A DNA stretch of 64,000 nt, from contig JAUSHK010000005.1 in the NCBI GenBank assembly GCA_030648515.1, forward strand, positions 162,895-226,894, written 5' to 3'. Each line of letters begins with the position of its first letter. The stretch's first letter is position 1. The notes below the pieces were generated by a model. It searched no databases and had not been told where the DNA came from. It saw only the letters and a program-made list of their open reading frames with translations. This DNA comes from Candidatus Jorgensenbacteria bacterium. GTDB lineage: Bacteria > Patescibacteriota > Minisyncoccia > UBA6257 > GWB1-50-10. Made by a program: the position numbers and the translations under genes. Below are positions 709 to 47,181 of the stretch, piece by piece.

Positions 709-3700
709 TTATTTTTCTAAATCACTTAACCGGTCCTCAAGTTCGCCGTGATATTGGACATCAAGGCCGAGCGACTTTAATTCTGAAACGAGAACATTGA
801 AGGAAGCGGGGATGTTCGGCTTTTTAATATCATTCCCGCGGATAATCGCCTCAAACGCCGCGGAGCGCCCGAGAATATCATCCGATTTAATGGTGAGCAT
901 TTCCTGCAACGTGTGCGCGGCGCCGTATCCTTCAAGCGCCCACACTTCCATTTCGCCGAAACGCTGTCCGCCCAGCTGCGCCTTTCCACCCAACGGTTGC
1001 TGCGTAATCAGGGAGTACGGACCCGTTGACCGCATATGAAGCTTGTCTTCAACAAGATGGTTCAGTTTCATAACGTAGATGTACCCGACCATGACCGGCT
1101 CGCGGAACGGCTTTCCCGTCATACCATCAAGCACGGTGAGTTTTCCAGATTCAGGAAAACCTGCAGCAACAAGTTCTTCTTTAATATCCTCTTCGGTTGG
1201 TCCCACGAAGTTCGGGACGACGGCGCGATATTTTAATGCGTTTGCCGCAAGCCCCAAGTGCGTTTCAAGAACCTGACCGAGGTTCATACGAGAAGCGATA
1301 CCAAGCGGGTTTAAGACAACATCAACTGGAGTCCCGTCTTCAAGATATGGCATATCTTCAACAGGGCGGATTTGCGAAATAACACCTTTGTTTCCGTGGC
1401 GGCCAGCAAGTTTGTCGCCGGCGCGGATTTTCCGGAGCTGGGCAACTTCAACCTGAATCTTTTTAATAATGCCTGGCTCAAGCTTGTCGGCTTTGTCGCG
1501 CGAGAAAATTTTAATTCCGATTACCCGCCCCTGTTTGCCGTTCGGCATGGTGAGCGACGTATCTTTAATGTCGCGCGCTTTTTCACCGAAAATTGCGCGA
1601 AGTAAACGTTCCTCAGAACTTAATTCTGACTCGCCTTTTGGTGAAATTTTCCCGACGATAATGTCGCCTGTGCGAAGTTCCGCGCCTATGCGCACAATGC
1701 CTTCTTCATCAAGATTGCGAAGCTTGTCCTCTGAAACATTCGGAATGTCAGGTGTTGTGATTTCGGGGCCAAGTTTTGTTTCGCGCACCGAGCAGGTATA
1801 CGTTTCAATATGAATAGATGTAAAGAAATCTTCGCGCGCAACGCGTTCCGAAAGAACAATGGCGTCTTCAAAATTAGCGCCGCGCCACGGTAGAAACGCG
1901 ACGAGAAGATTCTGCCCCAAGGCAAGAACTCCTTTTTGCGTTGCCGGCCCGTCTGCAAGCACGGTTCCTTTTGAAACTTTATCTCCCACCGAAACAACCG
2001 GCCGCTGAGAAATGCACGTTGATTGATTGGAGCGCTGGAATTTGAGAAGCGGGAATTTTTTAGCTCCGCCCGCGGTTTTCACCGTAACACTGCGTCCGTC
2101 AACTTCAGACACGGAACCCGAAACATCTGAAATTACAACTTGCTGGGAATCGCGCGCAGCGATTTCTTCAAGCCCAGTGCCAACAAGCGGCGCCCGCGGA
2201 CGTATTGACGGAACTGCCTGACGTTGCATGTTCGCGCCCATCAGTGCCCTGTTTGCGTCGTCATGCTCAAGGAATGGAATCAAGGATGTCGCGACGCTGA
2301 TAATTTGGTCAGGGGAAACGTCAATCAAGTCAAGGTCTTCACGGGAACAAGTTCCCGGCGCTCCTTTTATGCGCGCAGGAATTACTGATTCTTCAATATG
2401 CCCTTTTTCATCAATTTTAATGTCCGATTGGGCGATGTTATATTCCTCTTCGGCAATCGCATCAAGCCAAACAGAGTCGGATGTAACCACGCCTTTCTTT
2501 ACTTTGAAATATGGCGTCTCAAGAAAACCCATATCGTTCACGCGGCTGAAGTTTGCGAGATAACTAACAAGACCAATGTTCGCGCCCTCAGGGGTCTGAA
2601 TCGGACAGATTCTTCCATAGTATGAAGGGTGCACATCGCGAACTTCAAAGCCGGCGCGCTCGCGGGTAAGACCTCCAGGTCCCATCGCGGAAAGGCGCCG
2701 TTTGTGCTCAAGCTCCGCAAGCGGATTCACCTGATCCATAAATTGCGAAAGCTGGGATGATGAGAAGAAATCGCGGACGACAGCCGTAAGAAGCTTGTAG
2801 TTTACAAGCTGAACCGGCTGGAGTGATATTCGTTCTAATGTTGACATACGGTCCTGCACGCCGCGGCGTAGACGGGCAAAACCGATGCGAAGGCGGGTTT
2901 GGACCAATTCGCCCACCGCACGAATTCGGCGGTTACCAAGGTGGTCAATGTCATCCGGCTCGGCAATCGGAGTATTATTCAAATGGATAATTTCCCGAAT
3001 GAGCGCGATAAGATCGTCTTTATTAAGCAATCCGTCTTTCTTTTCTTTTATCTCGAGGCGCTGGTTATATTTGTACCTTCCGACAGGACTCAGATCGTAT
3101 CGGTCAAAGCGCATGAACATCCCTTCGATGAGCGCCTTTGCATTTTCAACAGTTGTAAGGTCGCCTGGACGAAGACGGGCATGGACACCGAGAAACGACT
3201 CGTCTGCATTTTTTGCATCATCCTTCTTAAGCGTCGCTTGGATGTATTTCACTTCTCCGACATCAATATCCGCGAAAGCTTTTATAATATCTTCGTGCTC
3301 CGTAAGGCCGAACACGCGCAGAAGCTGTGTTATCGGGGCTTTGCGCTTTCGGTCAATTTTGACACCGATAAATCCGTCCGATTCTGTTTCTATTTCAAGC
3401 CATGCGCCACGGTTCGGAATTACTTTTGCGCCGAAAAGTTTTCTTCCGCGAAAAACGTTTGCGGTAAAGTAGGCGCCCGGCGAGCGCATCAACTGGGAAA
3501 TCACCACGCGCTCAACGCCGTTTACAATGAAGGTCCCGCGTTTCGTCATCATTGGGAAATCGCCGAGATAAACTTCCTGAGTTTTCGCCTGTTTTGTACG
3601 TTTATCGGTAAGGCGTAAATCTACGCGAAGCGCGGCCTCGTAGGTCTGGTCTTTTTCTTTTGTCTGTTCCTCGGTATACTTCGGCGGATCAAACTTATAA

Positions 3701-10445: not shown

Positions 10446-11753
10446 TTAGATTCCCCACAAACGAAACGAGCCGGAACTGCTTGTAGCATTTACATTGGAC
10501 GAGCTTGAGTAGTACTTGCTTGAGCCGGTGTAGAAACCGCTCGCATCAAGTCCGCTGGACCAATCCGTTTGCTGAAACGTCGCGTTTTTCCAGCGGGTTA
10601 CGAAACTCGCTAGCGCCGCTTGAAGCGTTGACGCTCCGTTATTCCATTCCACAGTTGCAGTTACTTTTTGTGTTGATGGATCATCGCTTGATCCGCCGGC
10701 GCACGGCGATACGCCGCTTATCGTACTTGATGAATCTGCTGTCCTGCACACATTTTCTACAGAAAACCACCGCGTGAAAATCCTATTGTTATAAAGGCGT
10801 TTTACATCATCTGCCGAGAAAGCGAGGTTATAGATACGGACGTCGTCAATGTAGCCGTTCCAATAAAAACCACTACTATGCCTGCCGATGTAGAGAGTGT
10901 CACTGTTACTTAACGAGCCGCTCTTTGCTGCTATGGTATTTATTAAATCCCCATCTACATACAACGCGGTGCCATTTGTCCTGTCGGCAGAAATGGCAAT
11001 GTTGTACCATATTCCAGTGCTTATTGCGCTACTTGTTGCGAGCGATGAATTCCCACTGCTTACTTCATATCCACCTTGAAATACGTTTGATGGACTAATG
11101 CATAATTGGTAGTTCGGGTATGCAGCCGCATTTTTTGTGATTATACAGTGGTATGCGCCGTCCAAGGCATTTGTATTTACCCATGCCGTTATTGTGAAAT
11201 CCCCGGTTGTGATGTTATTAGTGTTTTCCGCAGTTACATAGGCGTCTACGCCGTTAAAACTCAGACAGTTGCCGATCTTACACGTTGATGATGCCCGCGT
11301 TGGACTGTTCGTGAGAGTCCCATTATTGTTATTTCCCGTCGCGTCATACGTTGTTGTACTCGTTGAGGTGACATCCTCGTCAAATTTCCATTCGCCGACA
11401 AGCCCGTTTGTAACATCATTATCTAAAATGCCTTCTTTCCCCTGAACAACGAAAAGCCTAGAACTTGACGCATTCAAGTAATACTGCGTACTCGTTCCCT
11501 TTGTGAGTCCATATAAGTTTTGCCAACTCTCTCCGCTCCATGCGTTTACTTTATCAATAAGTTCCTGCCCTATGGTTGAAGCGGACTGATTCCGTTCAAT
11601 GCCGACGTTCGAACGCAAAACACTCGAAATCGCTATCGTCGCCCCGCCGATAATAATCGCTCCGACTGACAAACCAATAAGCACTTCAACGAGGGACTGG
11701 CCGACTCGATTAGTTAGTAGTGAGTAGTGAGTAGTGAGTAGTTTTTTAGACAT
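10446..11753 (-). CDS. type IV pilin-like (pseudopilin) protein with C-terminal LamG/concanavalin-like domain
   Basis: The leader MSKKLLTTHYSLLTNRVG is followed by a prepilin cleavage/methylation motif G|QSLVEVLIGL (Glu at +5). The C-terminal LamG-like region reads WNGYIDDVRIYNLAFSADDVKRLYNN. The ORF is open further upstream to 11810 (MSRRDIV...). Confidence 0.7.
   Translation of the reverse strand: MSKKLLTTHYSLLTNRVGQSLVEVLIGLSVGAIIIGGATIAISSVLRSNVGIERNQSASTIGQELIDKVNAWSGESWQNLYGLTKGTSTQYYLNASSSRLFVVQGKEGILDNDVTNGLVGEWKFDEDVTSTSTTTYDATGNNNNGTLTNSPTRASSTCKIGNCLSFNGVDAYVTAENTNNITTGDFTITAWVNTNALDGAYHCIITKNAAAYPNYQLCISPSNVFQGGYEVSSGNSSLATSSAISTGIWYNIAISADRTNGTALYVDGDLINTIAAKSGSLSNSDTLYIGRHSSGFYWNGYIDDVRIYNLAFSADDVKRLYNNRIFTRWFSVENVCRTADSSSTISGVSPCAGGSSDDPSTQKVTATVEWNNGASTLQAALASFVTRWKNATFQQTDWSSGLDASGFYTGSSKYYSSSSNVNATSSSGSFRLWGI
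11712..11743. repeat. 32-nt heptamer-array repeat R, copy 1 (AGTTAGT + 3x AGTGAGT)
   Basis: agttagtagtgagtagtgagtagtgagtagtt matches the copies at 44333 and 46161 at 31 of 32 positions. On the coding strand it is CTACTCA x3.5 and encodes LLTTHYSLLT. Confidence 0.9.
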
Positions 11754-11791
11754 ATGTAAATACGATAAGATTATTTTATCAGTTCTATCTA

Positions 11792-11829
11792 CTATGTCCC
11801 TTCTGGACATCTCCCATAGGGAGACAAAC
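11792..11829. repeat. double-hairpin element H, copy 1 (ctatGTCCCttctGGACatCTCCCataGGGAGacaaac)
   Basis: Two adjacent 4-5 bp hairpins. The second copy, in reverse-complement orientation, is at 44518..44555 (34 of 38 identical). The GGGAG-ATG-TCC core encodes MSRRDIV on the minus strand. Confidence 0.85.
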
Positions 11830-11848
11830 TACCAACTACAAACTTCAC
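11824..11848. repeat. inverted heptamer-array repeat R-prime, copy 1 (acaaactaccaactacaaacttcac)
   Basis: Shares the 17-mer actaccaactacaaact with 46618..46648. Its reverse complement is built of the same AGTNNGT heptamer units as R (AGTTTGT AGTTGGT AGTTTGT). Confidence 0.8.
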
Positions 11849-17168: not shown

Positions 17169-17333
17169 AGTGTGACTATATCGCAAAACTTTTATTTGCA
17201 CAACACCAACGGATTCCGATTTAGAGATTAAAGATTTTTTTAGTTATCCCAGCGGGCCGAGACATAAAGGCTCATCGGCTAACACCTTAATTTTAAACTA
17301 TACAATTTTAAAAACTGTATAACGACGAATATA

Positions 17334-18826
<1,493 letters not shown>

Positions 18827-21486: not shown

Positions 21487-21520
21487 CCGCCGCGGCGGCG
21501 CGGCGGAATTTTCGATTTTT
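21487..21520. terminator. bidirectional rho-independent terminator between convergent genes
   Basis: CCGCCGCG-GCGG-CGCGGCGG hairpin followed by AATTTTCGATTTTT, with an A-rich run on the other side. Confidence 0.7.
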
Positions 21521-22256
21521 ATTTACTAAACGCTTTCACGATTTGCTCCATTTCGCCGCCCAGTATTTTTTCAATATTGTGAAATTTTTTCCCAATTCTG
21601 TGGTCAGTGATTCTGTCTTCCGGGAAATTGTACGTTCTGATTTTCTCCGCCCGCTCGCCCGAGCCAATTTGTTCGTTGCGCAGTTCGCCGACTGATCCGA
21701 CAGCTTGCTCTTTCTGCATTTCAAAAAGTTTTGCGCGCAGAACCTCCATCGCTTTCTCGCGGTTCGCGTGCTGTGAGCGTTCTTCGCGGGACCCTACCAC
21801 TAACCCGGTTGGTTTATGCGTAATACGAACGGCGGTTTCAACTTTATTAACATTCTGCCCGCCGGGACCGCCAGCGCGCGAAAACGTAACCTCTAAGTCG
21901 CTTTCTTTTACATCCACTGCCTTCGCTTCAACGACCGGCAAAACCGCCACTGATGCGGTTGATGTATGAATTCTTCCCTGCCGCTCGGTTTCAGGAATTC
22001 GCTGTACTCGGTGCACGCCTGATTCTTGCTTCAAGGCATCGTAAACGCCGAGGCCCGCTATTTCCGCGACAAGCGTTTTATATCCGCGTGCGCCGCTCAT
22101 ACTTGAATCGAGCGTCACAAACTGCCACCCGCGCTTCGCGGCATATTTCTGATACATCCGTGCCAAGTCGCCCGCAAAAAGCGACGCTTCGTCTCCACCG
22201 GTTCCCGCGCGCACTTCAAGAATGATTTTATTAATTGTGGTTTCCATAAATACCAT
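21519..22256 (-). CDS. prfA: peptide chain release factor 1-like protein lacking N-terminal domain 1
   Basis: GGQ motif ([14 protein letters not shown]), RF1-type tripeptide region [14 protein letters not shown] (PxT class). The ORF is 245 aa and aligns to RF1 from about residue 107. An in-frame TAA lies directly upstream of the start. Confidence 0.75.
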
Positions 22257-22338
22257 TTAAACACAAGAAACGCTGTTCAGCAATTGCCTTATTTCTAAAT
22301 TGCTGTATGTGATTAGATGGGGATGCTCCTTGTTCTAT

Positions 22339-22374
22339 AGCACAGGTGGTATGACATGTCATACCACCTGTGCT
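22339..22374. promoter_or_regulatory. 36-bp perfect palindrome overlapping a -10-like TATAAT in a divergent intergenic region (candidate operator)
   Basis: agcacaggtggtatgacatgtcataccacctgtgct is immediately followed by tataat (22374-22379), about 19 nt before the probable start of the HTH gene. The GGTGGTATGAC arm recurs at 22812-22835. Confidence 0.6.
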
Positions 22375-22397
22375 ATAATTATGTTATAGCTAACAAT

Positions 22398-22784
22398 ATG
22401 CCATCTCCGCTACCGTTGAAAAACCTTTCTTTATCGCACAAGGAATTGGAAAGGATGTATTGGAAGAAGATATTGAAATCCGAAAAACTTTTTGATTCGC
22501 TGATTACCTCGAGCGAACGCCACAACATAGTTATGCGTGCCGCAGTAGCGGAACTTGTAGATTCAGGAATGGGGACTCGACAAATCTCAAGAGAGCTTAG
22601 TATTTCTCGGCAAACCATAAGCAATATAAAAAGGATTACTAAAGAGAGTGCTTATAAAAGTTACCGCGAACGAGGTAAAACAGAACGGAGAAAGAAAGCG
22701 TATAACGGCAACTCTTCTCAGAAGAAAAAAGAACATGACCAGCACTACCGCCAAACTAAGTACGGAAAAGTTTACTTGCCTTGA
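22398..22784 (+). CDS. TrpR-like / YerC-YecD family helix-turn-helix protein
   Basis: ERMYWKKILKSEKLFDSLITSSERHNIVMRAAVAELVDSGMGTRQISRELSISRQTISNIKR resembles YerC/YecD and the Trp-repressor fold. The ORF is open from 22356 but the palindrome overlaps that start. Stop is TGA. Confidence 0.55.
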   Translation: MPSPLPLKNLSLSHKELERMYWKKILKSEKLFDSLITSSERHNIVMRAAVAELVDSGMGTRQISRELSISRQTISNIKRITKESAYKSYRERGKTERRKKAYNGNSSQKKKEHDQHYRQTKYGKVYLP

Positions 22785-22802: not shown

Positions 22803-22849
22803 CAGATTTTGGGTGGTATGACACGTCATACCACCGCGCTTTAAATCTG
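22803..22849. terminator. extended hairpin between convergent genes (bidirectional terminator candidate; shares an arm with the 22339 palindrome)
   Basis: cagatttt-G-GGTGGTATGAC-ac-GTCATACCACC-gcgc-tttaaatctg. The outer stem overlaps the fba stop codon. Confidence 0.55.
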
Positions 22850-33545: not shown

Positions 33546-33620
33546 TTTGTGCTGCACAGAAGCGGGAATTTAACCCGCGAGTTTTCTTTGTGAGAAAAGA
33601 CGATCGTTTTCTGCGCTGCG

Positions 33621-33690
33621 CGGCGGGAGAAGGATTCGAACCTCCGTAATCCCATTTGAATAGGATGCTCTGCCTCTAAGCTATCCCGCC
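33621..33690 (-). tRNA. tRNA with non-canonical anticodon loop (6- or 8-nt; candidate anticodons CAA/UCA), G73 discriminator
   Basis: Good acceptor (GGCGGGA/TCCCGCC), D arm and canonical T arm (GGAGG-TTCGAAT-CCTTC). The anticodon region ATCCT-ATTCAAAT-GGGAT only folds with an 8-nt loop; the alternative TCCTA/TGGGA stem leaves a 6-nt loop. Confidence 0.55.
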
Positions 33691-44230: not shown

Positions 44231-46240
44231 TTATTTAATAATAAAGCTTGCTTTTTCATTTTGATCTTTCGCTAATGTGGGCCAATTTTTCCAATCAAAT
44301 CGCTTTCCGACGAGGCGGAAGGAGATGGGAATAGTTTGTAGTGAGTAGTGAGTAGTGAGTAGTTGAGCGGAGAAGATGACTTTGTTGCCGGAGATTGCGT
44401 ATGAAACTGGGGCTGATACTCCGATTGGGGTGGCAAAAACATCAACATTGTCAGCGGAAAAATCCACGGCGTTTTTCCAGACCCACAGGTCCGAGCCCAC
44501 CTCGACTTTAGAAAAGTCGATGACGTGCTCGTAGGAGTTTGTCTCCCTACGGGAGATGTCCCGTAGGGACATAGTTGGGACAAGAGTCGCGCGACCGATA
44601 AATTCTTCACGGACGCCTCCGGCGATTGCCGACGCGTATGTTGAATATTTTTTCCCATCAATTTCATAGAGCGGATCGATAGTCGCCGCAGTGATTTTAT
44701 TTACTCCTACAAGATTATTGTTATTCATATTCAAATTTGTGATCGCCGCGCCGCCGAATGAAAGATTGCCGTTCAGCGACGATGTTCCGGTGACGAGAAA
44801 TGTTCCTTCAACAGAGAGCGTGTTTGTCGGAGTTGTCGTTGCGATGCCGACTGCTCCGGAAGTCGTGAGCGAGTATGGCATCTGCCCCGCATCGGGATCA
44901 AAATAATACGAGGAATCCGCAACGTCGTAATAAACGCCGGCCGAGAGATTGCCGTGGATGATGGCACTTTTTACGAACGATCCTGCCGGGCCGACTTCCA
45001 AGTATTCCGTCGGGGATGTGGTTGCGATACCAACTTTCCATGCCGTGCTTGATGCGTATATCGTGCTTCCGTTGAGCAACCAGAGTCCGGCGCTACCACC
45101 CGAGATAGCAGAGTCAACATAACTTTTCGTTGTGGCATCACTATCGCCTACTGGCGTCCCCACGACTACTGGCTGGGAAAAATACGAAGTGCCATTTACT
45201 TCAAATTTGTATGACGGGGAAGTAGTCGCTATACCGACGTTTCCGCCGTTTGGATTTAATAACAATGGTATTTCTGTCGCGAGATTACTTGAGTCATAAC
45301 CCTGTAGCCATGCCCCATATGGGGATGAAAGAGCTACGCCCATATCTAGAGCACCATTTGTGTTTCCGCTCCAAATACGAAATAACCCATTAGTAGTTGT
45401 TCCGGATGTTGCGGGTCCCACTGCAGCACCTGCAATAATTAATTTTGCATTTGGAAAATTTAATCCACCCCAAGTGTTGACTCCAATAGATGCGCTGCCA
45501 ATAACATCTAATTTATTTACCGGAGTACTGGTACCAATTCCAACATTTCCTGCTGTCGTCGCAAGCGTTGTTGTGCCGGTTATGTTTGTTGTACCAAGCG
45601 TGTAAAATGTCGCCGGCAAATTGCTTGTTGTTGAAGTACCAACAGCTAGACCGAGCGGAAACGCGTAATTTGCAGTTGTAAATGGACCGCCTAAAACATT
45701 CGCGGCGTCAATACTTGAAAGATACGCGCCCGTCCCGCGAAACGCGCCGTTTACTGTGCGTATGTCGCCCCCAACAATTAGCCGTTCATCAACGCCTGTT
45801 GAGGTCGCTTTAATGCCGATTCCAATACTGCCAAACTTATTAATGTCCATAACGACAAATCCTGGTAGGTTATCTGGCGCCCCTGATTCTCGATAAAGCT
45901 GGAGATTGCCAAAATTGCGGGCCGACCAAATATATGAATGGCCCGAGGTAAGGTTCTTTACGCCGACTCCAGGACTTGTTGTTGAAGCTACTATAAACAC
46001 GTACCCGTGCGACGACGAGCCGCTTTCCGTTGAGGTGGTGTTAAAAGTACTAACTGGGGAAGGCGCCGTTGTTCCAAAACCGATATTTAAATTTGAATCA
46101 ACACTAAACAGTCCCCCGCCGGTGCCCGCGGATTGGGTAGGACCGATGAAGGCACGGACAGTTTGTAGTGAGTAGTGAGTAGTGAGTAGTTCGAAAACGA
46201 GAATTACTACTACAAAGAAAGTTCTAGGGAAGTTTTTCAT
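44231..46240 (-). CDS. tail-fibre-repeat surface protein (contains the R repeat at both ends and the H element)
   Basis: Hydrophobic N-terminus, multiple VGIATTSPxxxLEV-type repeats, and a long Gly/Thr/Ser-rich beta-helix-like body. R copies lie at 46161-46192 (codons 17-27) and 44333-44364 (near the C-terminus). H lies at 44518-44555, antisense. Confidence 0.5.
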   Translation of the reverse strand: MKNFPRTFFVVVILVFELLTTHYSLQTVRAFIGPTQSAGTGGGLFSVDSNLNIGFGTTAPSPVSTFNTTSTESGSSSHGYVFIVASTTSPGVGVKNLTSGHSYIWSARNFGNLQLYRESGAPDNLPGFVVMDINKFGSIGIGIKATSTGVDERLIVGGDIRTVNGAFRGTGAYLSSIDAANVLGGPFTTANYAFPLGLAVGTSTTSNLPATFYTLGTTNITGTTTLATTAGNVGIGTSTPVNKLDVIGSASIGVNTWGGLNFPNAKLIIAGAAVGPATSGTTTNGLFRIWSGNTNGALDMGVALSSPYGAWLQGYDSSNLATEIPLLLNPNGGNVGIATTSPSYKFEVNGTSYFSQPVVVGTPVGDSDATTKSYVDSAISGGSAGLWLLNGSTIYASSTAWKVGIATTSPTEYLEVGPAGSFVKSAIIHGNLSAGVYYDVADSSYYFDPDAGQMPYSLTTSGAVGIATTTPTNTLSVEGTFLVTGTSSLNGNLSFGGAAITNLNMNNNNLVGVNKITAATIDPLYEIDGKKYSTYASAIAGGVREEFIGRATLVPTMSLRDISRRETNSYEHVIDFSKVEVGSDLWVWKNAVDFSADNVDVFATPIGVSAPVSYAISGNKVIFSAQLLTTHYSLQTIPISFRLVGKRFDWKNWPTLAKDQNEKASFIIK
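44333..44364. repeat. 32-nt heptamer-array repeat R, copy 2
   Basis: agtttgtagtgagtagtgagtagtgagtagtt is identical to 46161-46192. Confidence 0.9.
44518..44555. repeat. double-hairpin element H, copy 2 (inverted relative to copy 1)
   Basis: gtttgtCTCCCtacGGGAGatGTCCCgtaGGGACatag is the reverse complement of the 11792-11829 architecture. The plus-strand ATG at 44536 opens a 37-codon ORF MSRRDIVGTRV... Confidence 0.85.
46161..46192. repeat. 32-nt heptamer-array repeat R, copy 3
   Basis: Identical to 44333-44364. Lies just inside the 5' end of ORF 44231..46240 and 45 nt downstream of the avd-like gene's stop. Confidence 0.9.
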
Positions 46241-46614
46241 AGACTGTTTACTAATTTATTCAACATTTTCATCACTTCACTTAATAGTTTTTGAGATTCG
46301 CCACAAAATTCGGTATTGTTGCAAAAATTTAGTTGTCTTGCAATTTCAATTTGAGTTTCTAGCTCAGCGCCGGACCCATAAGCGTTTAGTAAAAAATGTC
46401 GAAAATCTTTTCGTGAACTTCTTCTGCTTCCTTCGGCGATGTTTGAAGGTATTGAAACTACGGCTCGCTTCATCTGTATCCCAAGCGCGTATGTTTCCGT
46501 TTGTGGAAATTGATTAACTAATTTGTAAATTGATTTCACTAATTCCATGGATTTATTCCAAACTATTAAATCTTTGTATGAGCTTATTTTATCTGTTGAG
46601 TTTTGTTGTTCCAT
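46237..46614 (-). CDS. four-helix-bundle protein (23S rRNA intervening-sequence protein / Avd-like, TIGR02436 family)
   Basis: YKDLIVWNKSMELVKSIYKLVNQFPQTETYALGIQMKRAVVSIPSNIAEGSRRSSRKDFRHFLLNAYGSGAELETQIEIARQL is the canonical pattern of this family. Confidence 0.8.
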   Translation of the reverse strand: MEQQNSTDKISSYKDLIVWNKSMELVKSIYKLVNQFPQTETYALGIQMKRAVVSIPSNIAEGSRRSSRKDFRHFLLNAYGSGAELETQIEIARQLNFCNNTEFCGESQKLLSEVMKMLNKLVNSL

Positions 46615-46617
46615 TTT

Positions 46618-46648
46618 CTACTCACTACCAACTACAAACTACTCACTG
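46618..46648. repeat. inverted heptamer-array repeat R-prime, copy 2
   Basis: ctactcactaccaactacaaactactcactg lies 4 nt upstream of the avd-like start codon. It is inverted relative to R at 46161-46192. Confidence 0.8.
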
Positions 46649-46656
46649 CTTCATTC

Positions 46657-47181
46657 CTATGGAATGACAATCAGCTGTCCCTGAATCTTTCCTCCCGACG
46701 GGCAGTGATCACGGCACTCGAAGAGAAACGAACCAACTGTGCCGGCTTTAAAACTGATTTGTTTTGTCTCTCCTTTTGGCGCTGTTATGTAAAATCCGAA
46801 ACTTTCCGAAAACATATCGTACGCATTATCCACGGCGGTAAAGTCAATCGTCACAATATTTCCGCGCCCAACAGTGAGCACTGCCGGATCGTAGCCATTT
46901 TTTGTCGCTTTTACTCCGTAAAATCCCTGCCGTTTTGTTTCTCCCGGGTCGGGTTTGATATCGACAGCGGGAGGCGTAAGTGCTGCGTTTTTAGGAACTT
47001 CCGGCGTGAAAGCCGGAATAATTTCCGGCACAGCCGGCCTTTCATTTGTTGATGTCGCCGTTTGCGTAGTTCCGCCTGTCCCCGGCAATGCCGCCTTTTG
47101 GCGCGCAAAAAAACCGGCCGCCGCGATACCAATAATAACAAGTACGAGCGCAACAATAAGCCCGAGATCTTTTTTGCTCAT
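46657..47181 (-). CDS. membrane-anchored cupredoxin-fold paralog
   Basis: TM anchor, TP-rich linker, then TIDFTAVDNAYDMF...SFLFECRDHCPSGGKIQGQLIV. Paralogous to 38353. Confidence 0.5.
   Translation of the reverse strand: MSKKDLGLIVALVLVIIGIAAAGFFARQKAALPGTGGTTQTATSTNERPAVPEIIPAFTPEVPKNAALTPPAVDIKPDPGETKRQGFYGVKATKNGYDPAVLTVGRGNIVTIDFTAVDNAYDMFSESFGFYITAPKGETKQISFKAGTVGSFLFECRDHCPSGGKIQGQLIVIP

Follow-up and report, generated by a model that had tools for sequence, protein, structure and literature searches.

The closest described relatives of the element reported here are the intervening sequences (IVS) in the 23S rRNA genes of Coxiella burnetii, Leptospira and Xanthomonas. They consist of an open reading frame (ORF) of the PF05635 family enclosed in a stem of about 30 bp, the whole being some 430–500 nt long, with tandem heptamers directly 5' of the ATG; their mobility has long been suspected and never demonstrated. 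In Coxiella three copies of GACAGAT lie between the RNase III cut and the ATG of S23p, within the 28-bp terminal stem; the first repeat is where RNase III cleaves, and strains differ in repeat number (PMC4990558). By our own reading of this heptamer it places TGA at a period of seven. We describe a cassette of the same layout in DNA from a Candidatus Jorgensenbacteria bacterium (GCA_030648515.1, contig JAUSHK010000005.1, positions 162,895 to 226,894; this whole stretch of 64,000 nt is referred to as the window). It carries a gene for a four-helix-bundle (4HB) protein between two inverted arrays of stop-codon heptamers and lies between protein-coding genes.

Other systems share part of this architecture. 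The Avd protein of diversity-generating retroelements (DGRs) has a homologous fold and forms a pentameric barrel, all five protomers of which touch a single RNA stem-loop (bioRxiv 10.1101/2023.10.23.563531); in DGR RNA the 3' end of avd pairs with the downstream spacer RNA. Direct repeats of the heptamer TAACTGA, having the same stop-codon logic, occur in Beggiatoaceae and cyanobacteria, and no link to PF05635 genes was drawn (PMC4679880). Like the arms of our cassette, these repeats and the short repeats in tandem known as STRR are intergenic, offer stops in three frames and point towards a downstream start codon; they sometimes overlap the upstream stop, and usually no Shine-Dalgarno sequence intervenes. 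Unlike the arms, they were reported to be direct, inverted pairs being almost absent. Repetitive extragenic palindromes (REP) and their doublets (REPINs), together with the REP-associated tyrosine transposase RAYT, form REPtrons, in which a gene likewise lies between inverted short repeats and ORF-less doublets are intercistronic.

The 125-aa product of the cassette gene possesses full-length matches above the curated cut-offs to PF05635 [122.2 bits over residues 14–120; cut-off 33.8] and TIGR02436 [120.7 bits; cut-off 24]. By sequence match its closest solved structure is the pentameric XCC0516 of Xanthomonas [4.9e-22, PDB 2GSC]. Avd-type models recognize it weakly: PF22296 and NF033474 each give 26.2 bits, which is below their cut-offs of at least 40 and at least 80 bits respectively, and the PHROG family "Avd protein of DGR" matches with an E value of 1.5e-7. 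PF05635 and the Avd-type models were the only matches, with no HUH/Y1 or other catalytic signature in the protein, and a PADLOC search with it gave no match.

The gene is bracketed by inverted repeats, as the preliminary description of the locus had held. The two arms (46159–46189 and 46618–46648) are 31 nt long and 81% complementary, rising to 91% over a 23-nt core. Both are arrays of five heptamers with TAG every 7 nt, reading (TAGNNNN)n upstream and (NNNNCTA)n downstream in the sense of the gene. The upstream arm, R', has five units, presents stop codons in every frame and ends 3 nt 5' of the 4HB ATG (previously given as 4 nt); the downstream arm, R, lies at about 45 nt beyond the 4HB stop, the distance first reported. 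R is stop-free in all frames and encodes LLTTHYSLQT within the signal peptide of the following gene, MKNFPRTFFVVVILVFE-LLTTHYSLQT-VRA/FIGPT, whose ATG (46238–46240) shares bases with the TGA of the 4HB gene (46237–46239) in an ATGA overlap (46237–46240). When the 23-mer core was sought with up to three mismatches, seven overlapping positions were found in the window against 0.00 expected from 100 shuffles. They fall at four sites, three of them on the + strand (11712, 44333 and 46160) and one on the − strand (46618). Period-7 runs of TAG are confined to these repeat sites, and there are none of period 5, 6, 8 or 9 in the window. In minimum free energy (MFE) folds R' is predicted to pair with R both here and at the second locus described below (z = -3.6 and -2.9), so that, as in an IVS, terminal inverted repeats would form a long stem around the ORF. 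The coordinates are collected in Table 1.

Table 1. Repeat arrays, the cassette gene and adjacent genes in the window
Feature	Position	Strand	Basis or remarks
3'-arm-type array of ORF-less hairpin	11711..11741	-	translated in type IV pilin-like leader
Repeat P copy in ORF-less hairpin, adjoining R'	11789..11832	.	repeat search
5'-arm-type array (degenerate R') of ORF-less hairpin	11826..11848	-	overlaps TGA stop of upstream pilin-like gene
Downstream secreted surface-protein ORF, 669 aa	44231..46240	-	homologues in Jorgensenbacteria, Brennerbacteria and others
Solo heptamer array, in frame (LLTTHYSLQT)	44332..44362	-	in 669-aa surface protein
Repeat P copy, in frame (TMSLRDISRRETN)	44536..44577	-	no counterpart in homologues P0133 and P0137
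3' arm, R	46159..46192	-	gene sense CTACTCA CTACTCA CTACTCA CTACAAA CTG
Start segment of downstream surface-protein ORF (MKNFPRTFFVVVILVFE...)	46190..46240	-	inside the part differing from L082
4HB gene, PF05635/TIGR02436, 125 aa	46237..46614	-	profile matches and structure match
5' arm, R'	46618..46648	-	gene sense CAGTGAG TAGTTTG TAGTTGG TAGTGAG TAG
Upstream cupredoxin-like gene	46657..47181	-	TAG stop at 46657–46659, 8 nt before first 5'-arm unit

Within the window the cassette stands outside both contexts for which its protein family is best known, as the preliminary description had noted. The only rRNA gene is a solitary 16S gene (17328–18826), which adjoins the pilus cluster about 27 kb from the cassette; the 64 kb contain no 23S or other large-subunit rRNA. 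Nor does the window hold a reverse transcriptase (RT)-like ORF with a YxDD motif, a pair of repeats resembling the template and variable repeats (TR/VR) of a DGR, or a second copy of the gene, and for the window a DGR is rejected. The cassette differs from the 23S IVS in that its host is an mRNA operon junction between protein-coding genes and not helix 9, 25 or 45 of the rRNA, and from the Coxiella IVS also in having TAG heptamers in place of TGA and one arm that is translated. The suggested likeness to the rRNA IVS extends past the protein, since the Coxiella IVS also has heptamers upstream of its ORF (PMC4990558). From Avd and the DGRs it differs in the absence of RT, TR and VR.

The surface protein contains, besides the 3' arm, two more repeat-derived inserts in frame. 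One, a solo copy of R, is a 30-nt insertion in an indel-variable loop near the C-terminus; it precedes 33 conserved residues (FRLVGKRFDW...PTLAKDQNE...IIK), and three homologues lack it. The other is a copy of a repeat, P, of about 42 nt, which is made up of two adjacent small hairpins (ATGTCCC..GGGACAT and TCTCCC..GGGAGA). A weaker palindrome of P-like type adjoins R' at 46651–46667. These inserts resemble the Rickettsia palindromic elements, which are likewise structured repeats translated in frame; they are far shorter (30–42 nt), and the heptamer arrays are tied to a protein-coding cassette. The shared reading frame of the translated LLTTHYS copies was considered as evidence and dropped as uninformative, because any frame of a heptamer array yields the same cyclic 7-aa repeat.

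The second R/R' pair, reported earlier at 11712–11848 as a possible empty or miniature version of the element, is real by inspection of the sequence. Its R' is degenerate and was missed by the core search. Translation of the 3'-arm-type array yields part of a type IV pilin-like leader (MSKKLLTTHYSLLTNRVG/QSLVEVL, that is, MSKK-LLTTHYSLLT-NRVG/QSLVEVL), and there is no alternative start codon 3' of the array. R is at most a candidate for a simple length insertion in this leader, since a homologue has one of similar length, MSKKIEKIKRIIKERGG. The idea of a miniature version has held up in that such ORF-less hairpins proved to be common in homologous loci.

To these we now turn. Eighty loci were fetched, their proteins being 50–66% identical to the 4HB query and mostly from Candidate Phyla Radiation (CPR)/Patescibacteria genomes. 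The flank-to-flank inverted-repeat score has a median of 29, versus 16 in displaced controls (95th percentile 20, maximum 25), and 67 of 78 loci exceed the control 95th percentile. At least three TAG units are present in each arm in 65/77 loci versus 10/403 control windows. Conservation of the repeats around homologous genes, which the preliminary description had made a test of its proposal, is therefore found at the level of the class. The units are TAG followed by four, sometimes five, variable bases; the modal arm length is five units (in 32 and 33 of the 77 loci for the two arms), and longer arms are rare. The polarity is fixed, with 80 adjacent TAG-then-CTA pairs versus a single short-gap pair in the reverse order. 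About 17 ORF-less hairpins of the same polarity occur in these loci, several of them spanning stop-start junctions. A distant PF05635 paralogue (L017) has arms of TAATTGT type, with TAA.

The arms are specific to their cassettes. Self-pairing within a locus has a median score of 32.5 versus 16 across loci (p = 1e-31), and two cassettes in one genome, whose proteins are 79% identical, have arms that differ yet are self-complementary. The more alike two proteins are, the more alike their arms tend to be (Mantel r = 0.33, p = 0.001). The arm type of the window (TAGTGAG/TAGTTTG/TAGTTGG) is also present in Campbellbacteria, Colwellbacteria and other lineages. The supposition that the 3' arm is always open for translation is false: from the base frequencies at position 7, CTAA or CTAG is calculated to arise in about 46% of units, and only the class of unit ending in G, as in the window, is stop-free in the 3' arm. 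Some 4HB ORFs have TAG arrays inside their 3' part (L016, 3308–3397; L063, 3281–3394), possibly nested or partial cassettes. In L022 and L051 whole array blocks are duplicated in tandem upstream of the 4HB genes.

Placement is equally regular. Neighbouring genes are co-directional with the cassette in 64/70 loci upstream and 60/69 downstream. TAG is the stop codon of the upstream gene in 53 of 60 loci versus a background of 27%, and this stop coincides far more often with the first TAG of the array (27 loci) than with the second (three) or the third (five); a ratio so far from 1:1:1 indicates that the arrays did not merely catch read-through. At the other end, 49 of 70 loci have an ORF of 80 aa or more whose ATG follows the 3' array at a median of 4 nt. 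The element fills the stop-to-start gap exactly.

The claim that such cassettes had colonised surface-protein operons was too narrow. Across 59–60 loci the neighbours are diverse, among them aminoacyl-tRNA synthetases, transketolase halves, PolA, pyruvate kinase, FtsW, LexA and CorA, and sites in cyanobacterial operons (below) widen the range further. PrgI (7/59), type IV pilins and type IV secretion system (T4SS) pilins do recur as downstream neighbours. Pilin leaders of L002, L004, L020 and L034 likewise include the translated 3' arm, L020 also having the ATGA overlap; evidently a leader that is cleaved off can accommodate arrays of the stop-free class. In L056 (1678–2189) an ORF-less TAG/CTA heptamer hairpin lies directly 3' of a tmRNA gene, and in L014 a tRNA gene (3404–3475) lies within about 45 nt 3' of a cassette, which suggests that the ends of stable-RNA genes also serve as sites. 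Of the homologous loci, the 20 whose intergenic gaps are largest were scanned with Rfam and showed no rRNA.

Three states were encountered at the junction of the cupredoxin-like and surface-protein genes. In the window it is occupied by the cassette. In L084 it is empty: 6 nt separate the two genes, arrays are absent, and the surface protein has neither the R nor the P inserts. In L082, from Hainich groundwater, the flanking proteins are 69% and 66–72% identical to those of the window, and the junction holds a different PF05635 gene [E = 1.5e-12] showing no BLASTP similarity to the 4HB gene of the window, with arms of CTAATNN/CAATTAC type that are unlike the window's. Homology between the two loci is lost about 8 nt beyond the upstream TAG, and the inner end of R is the point from which they align again. 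The L082 surface protein has a C-terminal in-frame insert of AATTAC-containing repeats resembling the arms of its own cassette. Since cassettes are absent from, or replaced at, the same junction in relatives, they must move or be exchanged, and the mobility proposed at the outset is largely borne out. Terminal inverted repeats and presence/absence polymorphism are here combined as in terminal inverted repeat (TIR) transposons and miniature inverted-repeat transposable elements (MITEs).

PF05635 genes on cyanobacterial plasmids occupy comparable positions, namely between nrdB and nrdA, cas6 and cas4 (twice), cmr2 and cmr3, and hlyD and an ABC transporter gene. Heptamer arrays are present on the flanks of the gene in five of six such loci, such as (TAGGGAG)n/(CTCCCTA)n in Nostoc and, in Anabaena sp. 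90, (GGTGACA)n/(CTGTCAC)n; these arrays may correspond to the STRR repeats. L089, L093 and L092 (NC_019429, NZ_CP112875 and NZ_CP016476) place cassettes in type I-D cas6/cas4 and type III-B cmr2/cmr3 operons. A large clustering study scored "23S rRNA IVP" as CRISPR-associated (PMC10910872), probably because cassettes sit inside cas operons.

Based upon these observations we consider that the window cassette probably belongs to a widespread class of small insertions that are of the 23S IVS type and have no promoter, and it is best filed as an IVS-type 4HB variant living in operon junctions and not in rRNA. Within the host transcript both arms, of about 30 nt each, would anneal, so that the insert is looped out. 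Where the host is an operon, the stop of the upstream gene would thereby stay close to the start of the downstream one, and the outward-facing stops would halt ribosomes arriving on either strand and in all three frames; in rRNA the same stem would be a substrate for RNase III. The host transcript would also serve as message for the 4HB protein, which, if pentameric Avd on its RNA stem-loop is a guide, probably binds its own five-unit arms. The arrays can in addition be absorbed into coding sequence. The window copies are translatable in leaders, a signal peptide and a surface loop because the complement of TAGTGAG-type units is stop-free in all frames.

Several findings weigh against this reading. 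The 4HB cassette has no recognizable recombinase, transposase or RT, and no target-site duplication was seen in the junction alignments, which compare strongly diverged genomes. The arm mismatches comprise 91 that are G.U-compatible versus 78 of A.C type and 296 of transversion type; a G.U bias, looked for as the signal of a sense-RNA stem, was accordingly dropped, and as there is no excess, the mismatches lend no specific support to selection for a sense-RNA stem. The arms could owe their complementarity to maintenance at the level of DNA or to conversion between them. Co-orientation could be explained equally well by replication direction, as in single-stranded-DNA transposition. The downstream ATG falls within the loop in the window and in L002, L004, L020 and L034, so that cleavage of the stem would behead the downstream mRNA. 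The inverted orientation and five-unit length are not universal, as the arrays in L093 (Pseudanabaena galeata, 1070–1700) are direct and very long, with (CTAAAAG)x16 upstream and (CCAAAAG)x10 downstream. The heptamer family also differs between sister genomes: in L081 (2140–2290; the same as L082, 3' of the surface-protein gene) a hairpin (AATTNCC)x4 ... (GNNAATT)n, lying between the surface-protein stop and the next ATG, consists of heptamers without TAG and in the opposite polarity. Finally, the test of generality covers relatives at least about 50% identical and a handful of distant ones.

The main rival, which we think rather unlikely, is that the arms act as DNA. The element would then be a hairpin of the REP/RAYT or IS200/IS605 kind, moved by a host enzyme as single-stranded DNA at the replication fork, and the ORF-less hairpins would be its non-autonomous copies. 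It would accommodate the missing G.U bias and a polarity that is fixed and identical on both strands; empty and replaced sites exist, and fork-dependent insertion is also expected to bias orientation. An inverted-repeat-flanked gene with dispersed ORF-less doublets does resemble REPtrons and REPINs, but the flanked gene here encodes no HUH/Y1 transposase, its 4HB product coming instead from an RNA-binding family, and the cassettes further differ from REPtrons in being many per genome with cassette-specific arms. The rRNA version is, moreover, processed as RNA by RNase III (PMC4990558). No transposase is found among the 25 commonest neighbour families, where a rarer neighbour could escape. The same 25 families include no integrase, and repeats on both sides of the ORF, in the form of heptamer arrays, distinguish the element from an integron cassette.

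Slipped-strand phase variation, whereby gain or loss of 7 nt would switch the pilin-like gene and the surface protein, is compatible with an IVS-type insertion and would be a plausible by-product of it; as the explanation of the translated arrays we regard it as improbable. In the Neisseria opa genes CTCTT repeats act as slippage switches. Here a repeat whose length is not a multiple of three lies, as in contingency loci, in the pilin leader and the surface-protein signal peptide, four to five units being present in the 5' coding region of each gene, and the placement is the same in the pilins of L002, L004, L020 and L034. Heptamer number also differs among Coxiella strains (PMC4990558). The tracts are, however, short and imperfect, with TAGTTTG, TAGTTGG and TAGTGAG mixed, which would lower the rate of slippage, and arrays in other loci are mostly intergenic. 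The C-terminal copy in the surface protein looks fixed in frame, and P0122 (L081–L082) has a different repeat-derived insert at the same spot.

It is very improbable that the gene is an orphan avd acting in trans with a DGR elsewhere in the genome, the repeats being unrelated to it. DGRs are common in CPR genomes and the weak PF22296, NF033474 and PHROG Avd matches point in this direction, yet the bit scores fall far under the Avd cut-offs, the window offers neither an RT motif nor a TR/VR pair nor a second copy, no RT family is among the 25 commonest neighbour families of the 59–60 homologues, and the repeats are tied to the gene in 65/77 loci. An invertible DNA switch for the surface-protein and pilin genes, suggested by inverted repeats that bracket their start codons, is almost certainly not the explanation and was rejected, since homologous cassettes are nearly always in the sense orientation (64/70), the same layout occurs between housekeeping genes, no invertase lies nearby, and no contig in the inverted state was recovered.

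The window contains a few further features of note. A 142-aa gene of the Trp-repressor/helix-turn-helix (HTH) type (22356–22784) lies between copies of a palindrome, GGTGGTATGACA(T/C)GTCATACCACC, at 22336–22377 and 22812–22835, the first of them embedded in a perfect palindrome of 42 nt. They probably serve the HTH regulator as operators, unrelated to the heptamer arms. The anticodon loop of a tRNA-like gene at 33620–33690 was unassignable by ARAGORN. The release-factor ORF (21519–22256) has 245 aa and its PCRF domain match starts at model position 100; it may be N-terminally short or frameshifted.

The IVS-type reading of the window cassette can be extended, tentatively and with limited confidence, to all PF05635 genes accompanied by stop-codon heptamers, which would then be one class of mobile element spanning the CPR, the cyanobacteria and the 23S IVS of pathogens. 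The pentamer would bind the five-unit arms as RNA, one protomer to each unit, and the resulting ribonucleoprotein would direct copying or insertion into stop-start junctions and the tips of RNA hairpins, possibly with a borrowed RT; ORF-less hairpins and in-frame arrays would be non-autonomous copies or footprints. Searches of open-access literature brought up no account of PF05635 genes flanked by heptamer arrays in a setting other than rRNA, which is not proof of novelty. Nor do five-unit inverted stop-codon arms, a first unit that is itself the upstream stop, the swapping of cassettes at one site, or the absorption of arms into leaders appear to have been described there.

For the annotation of CPR genomes the arrays have a practical consequence: they provide upstream genes with their stops and enter leader peptides, so that the calling of gene starts and ends is affected. 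The architecture would also account for the abundance of Avd-like proteins outside DGRs. The 23S IVS ORF protein and the cyanobacterial STRR sequences have each been without a function or an origin for some 30 years, and the architecture which they share joins them.

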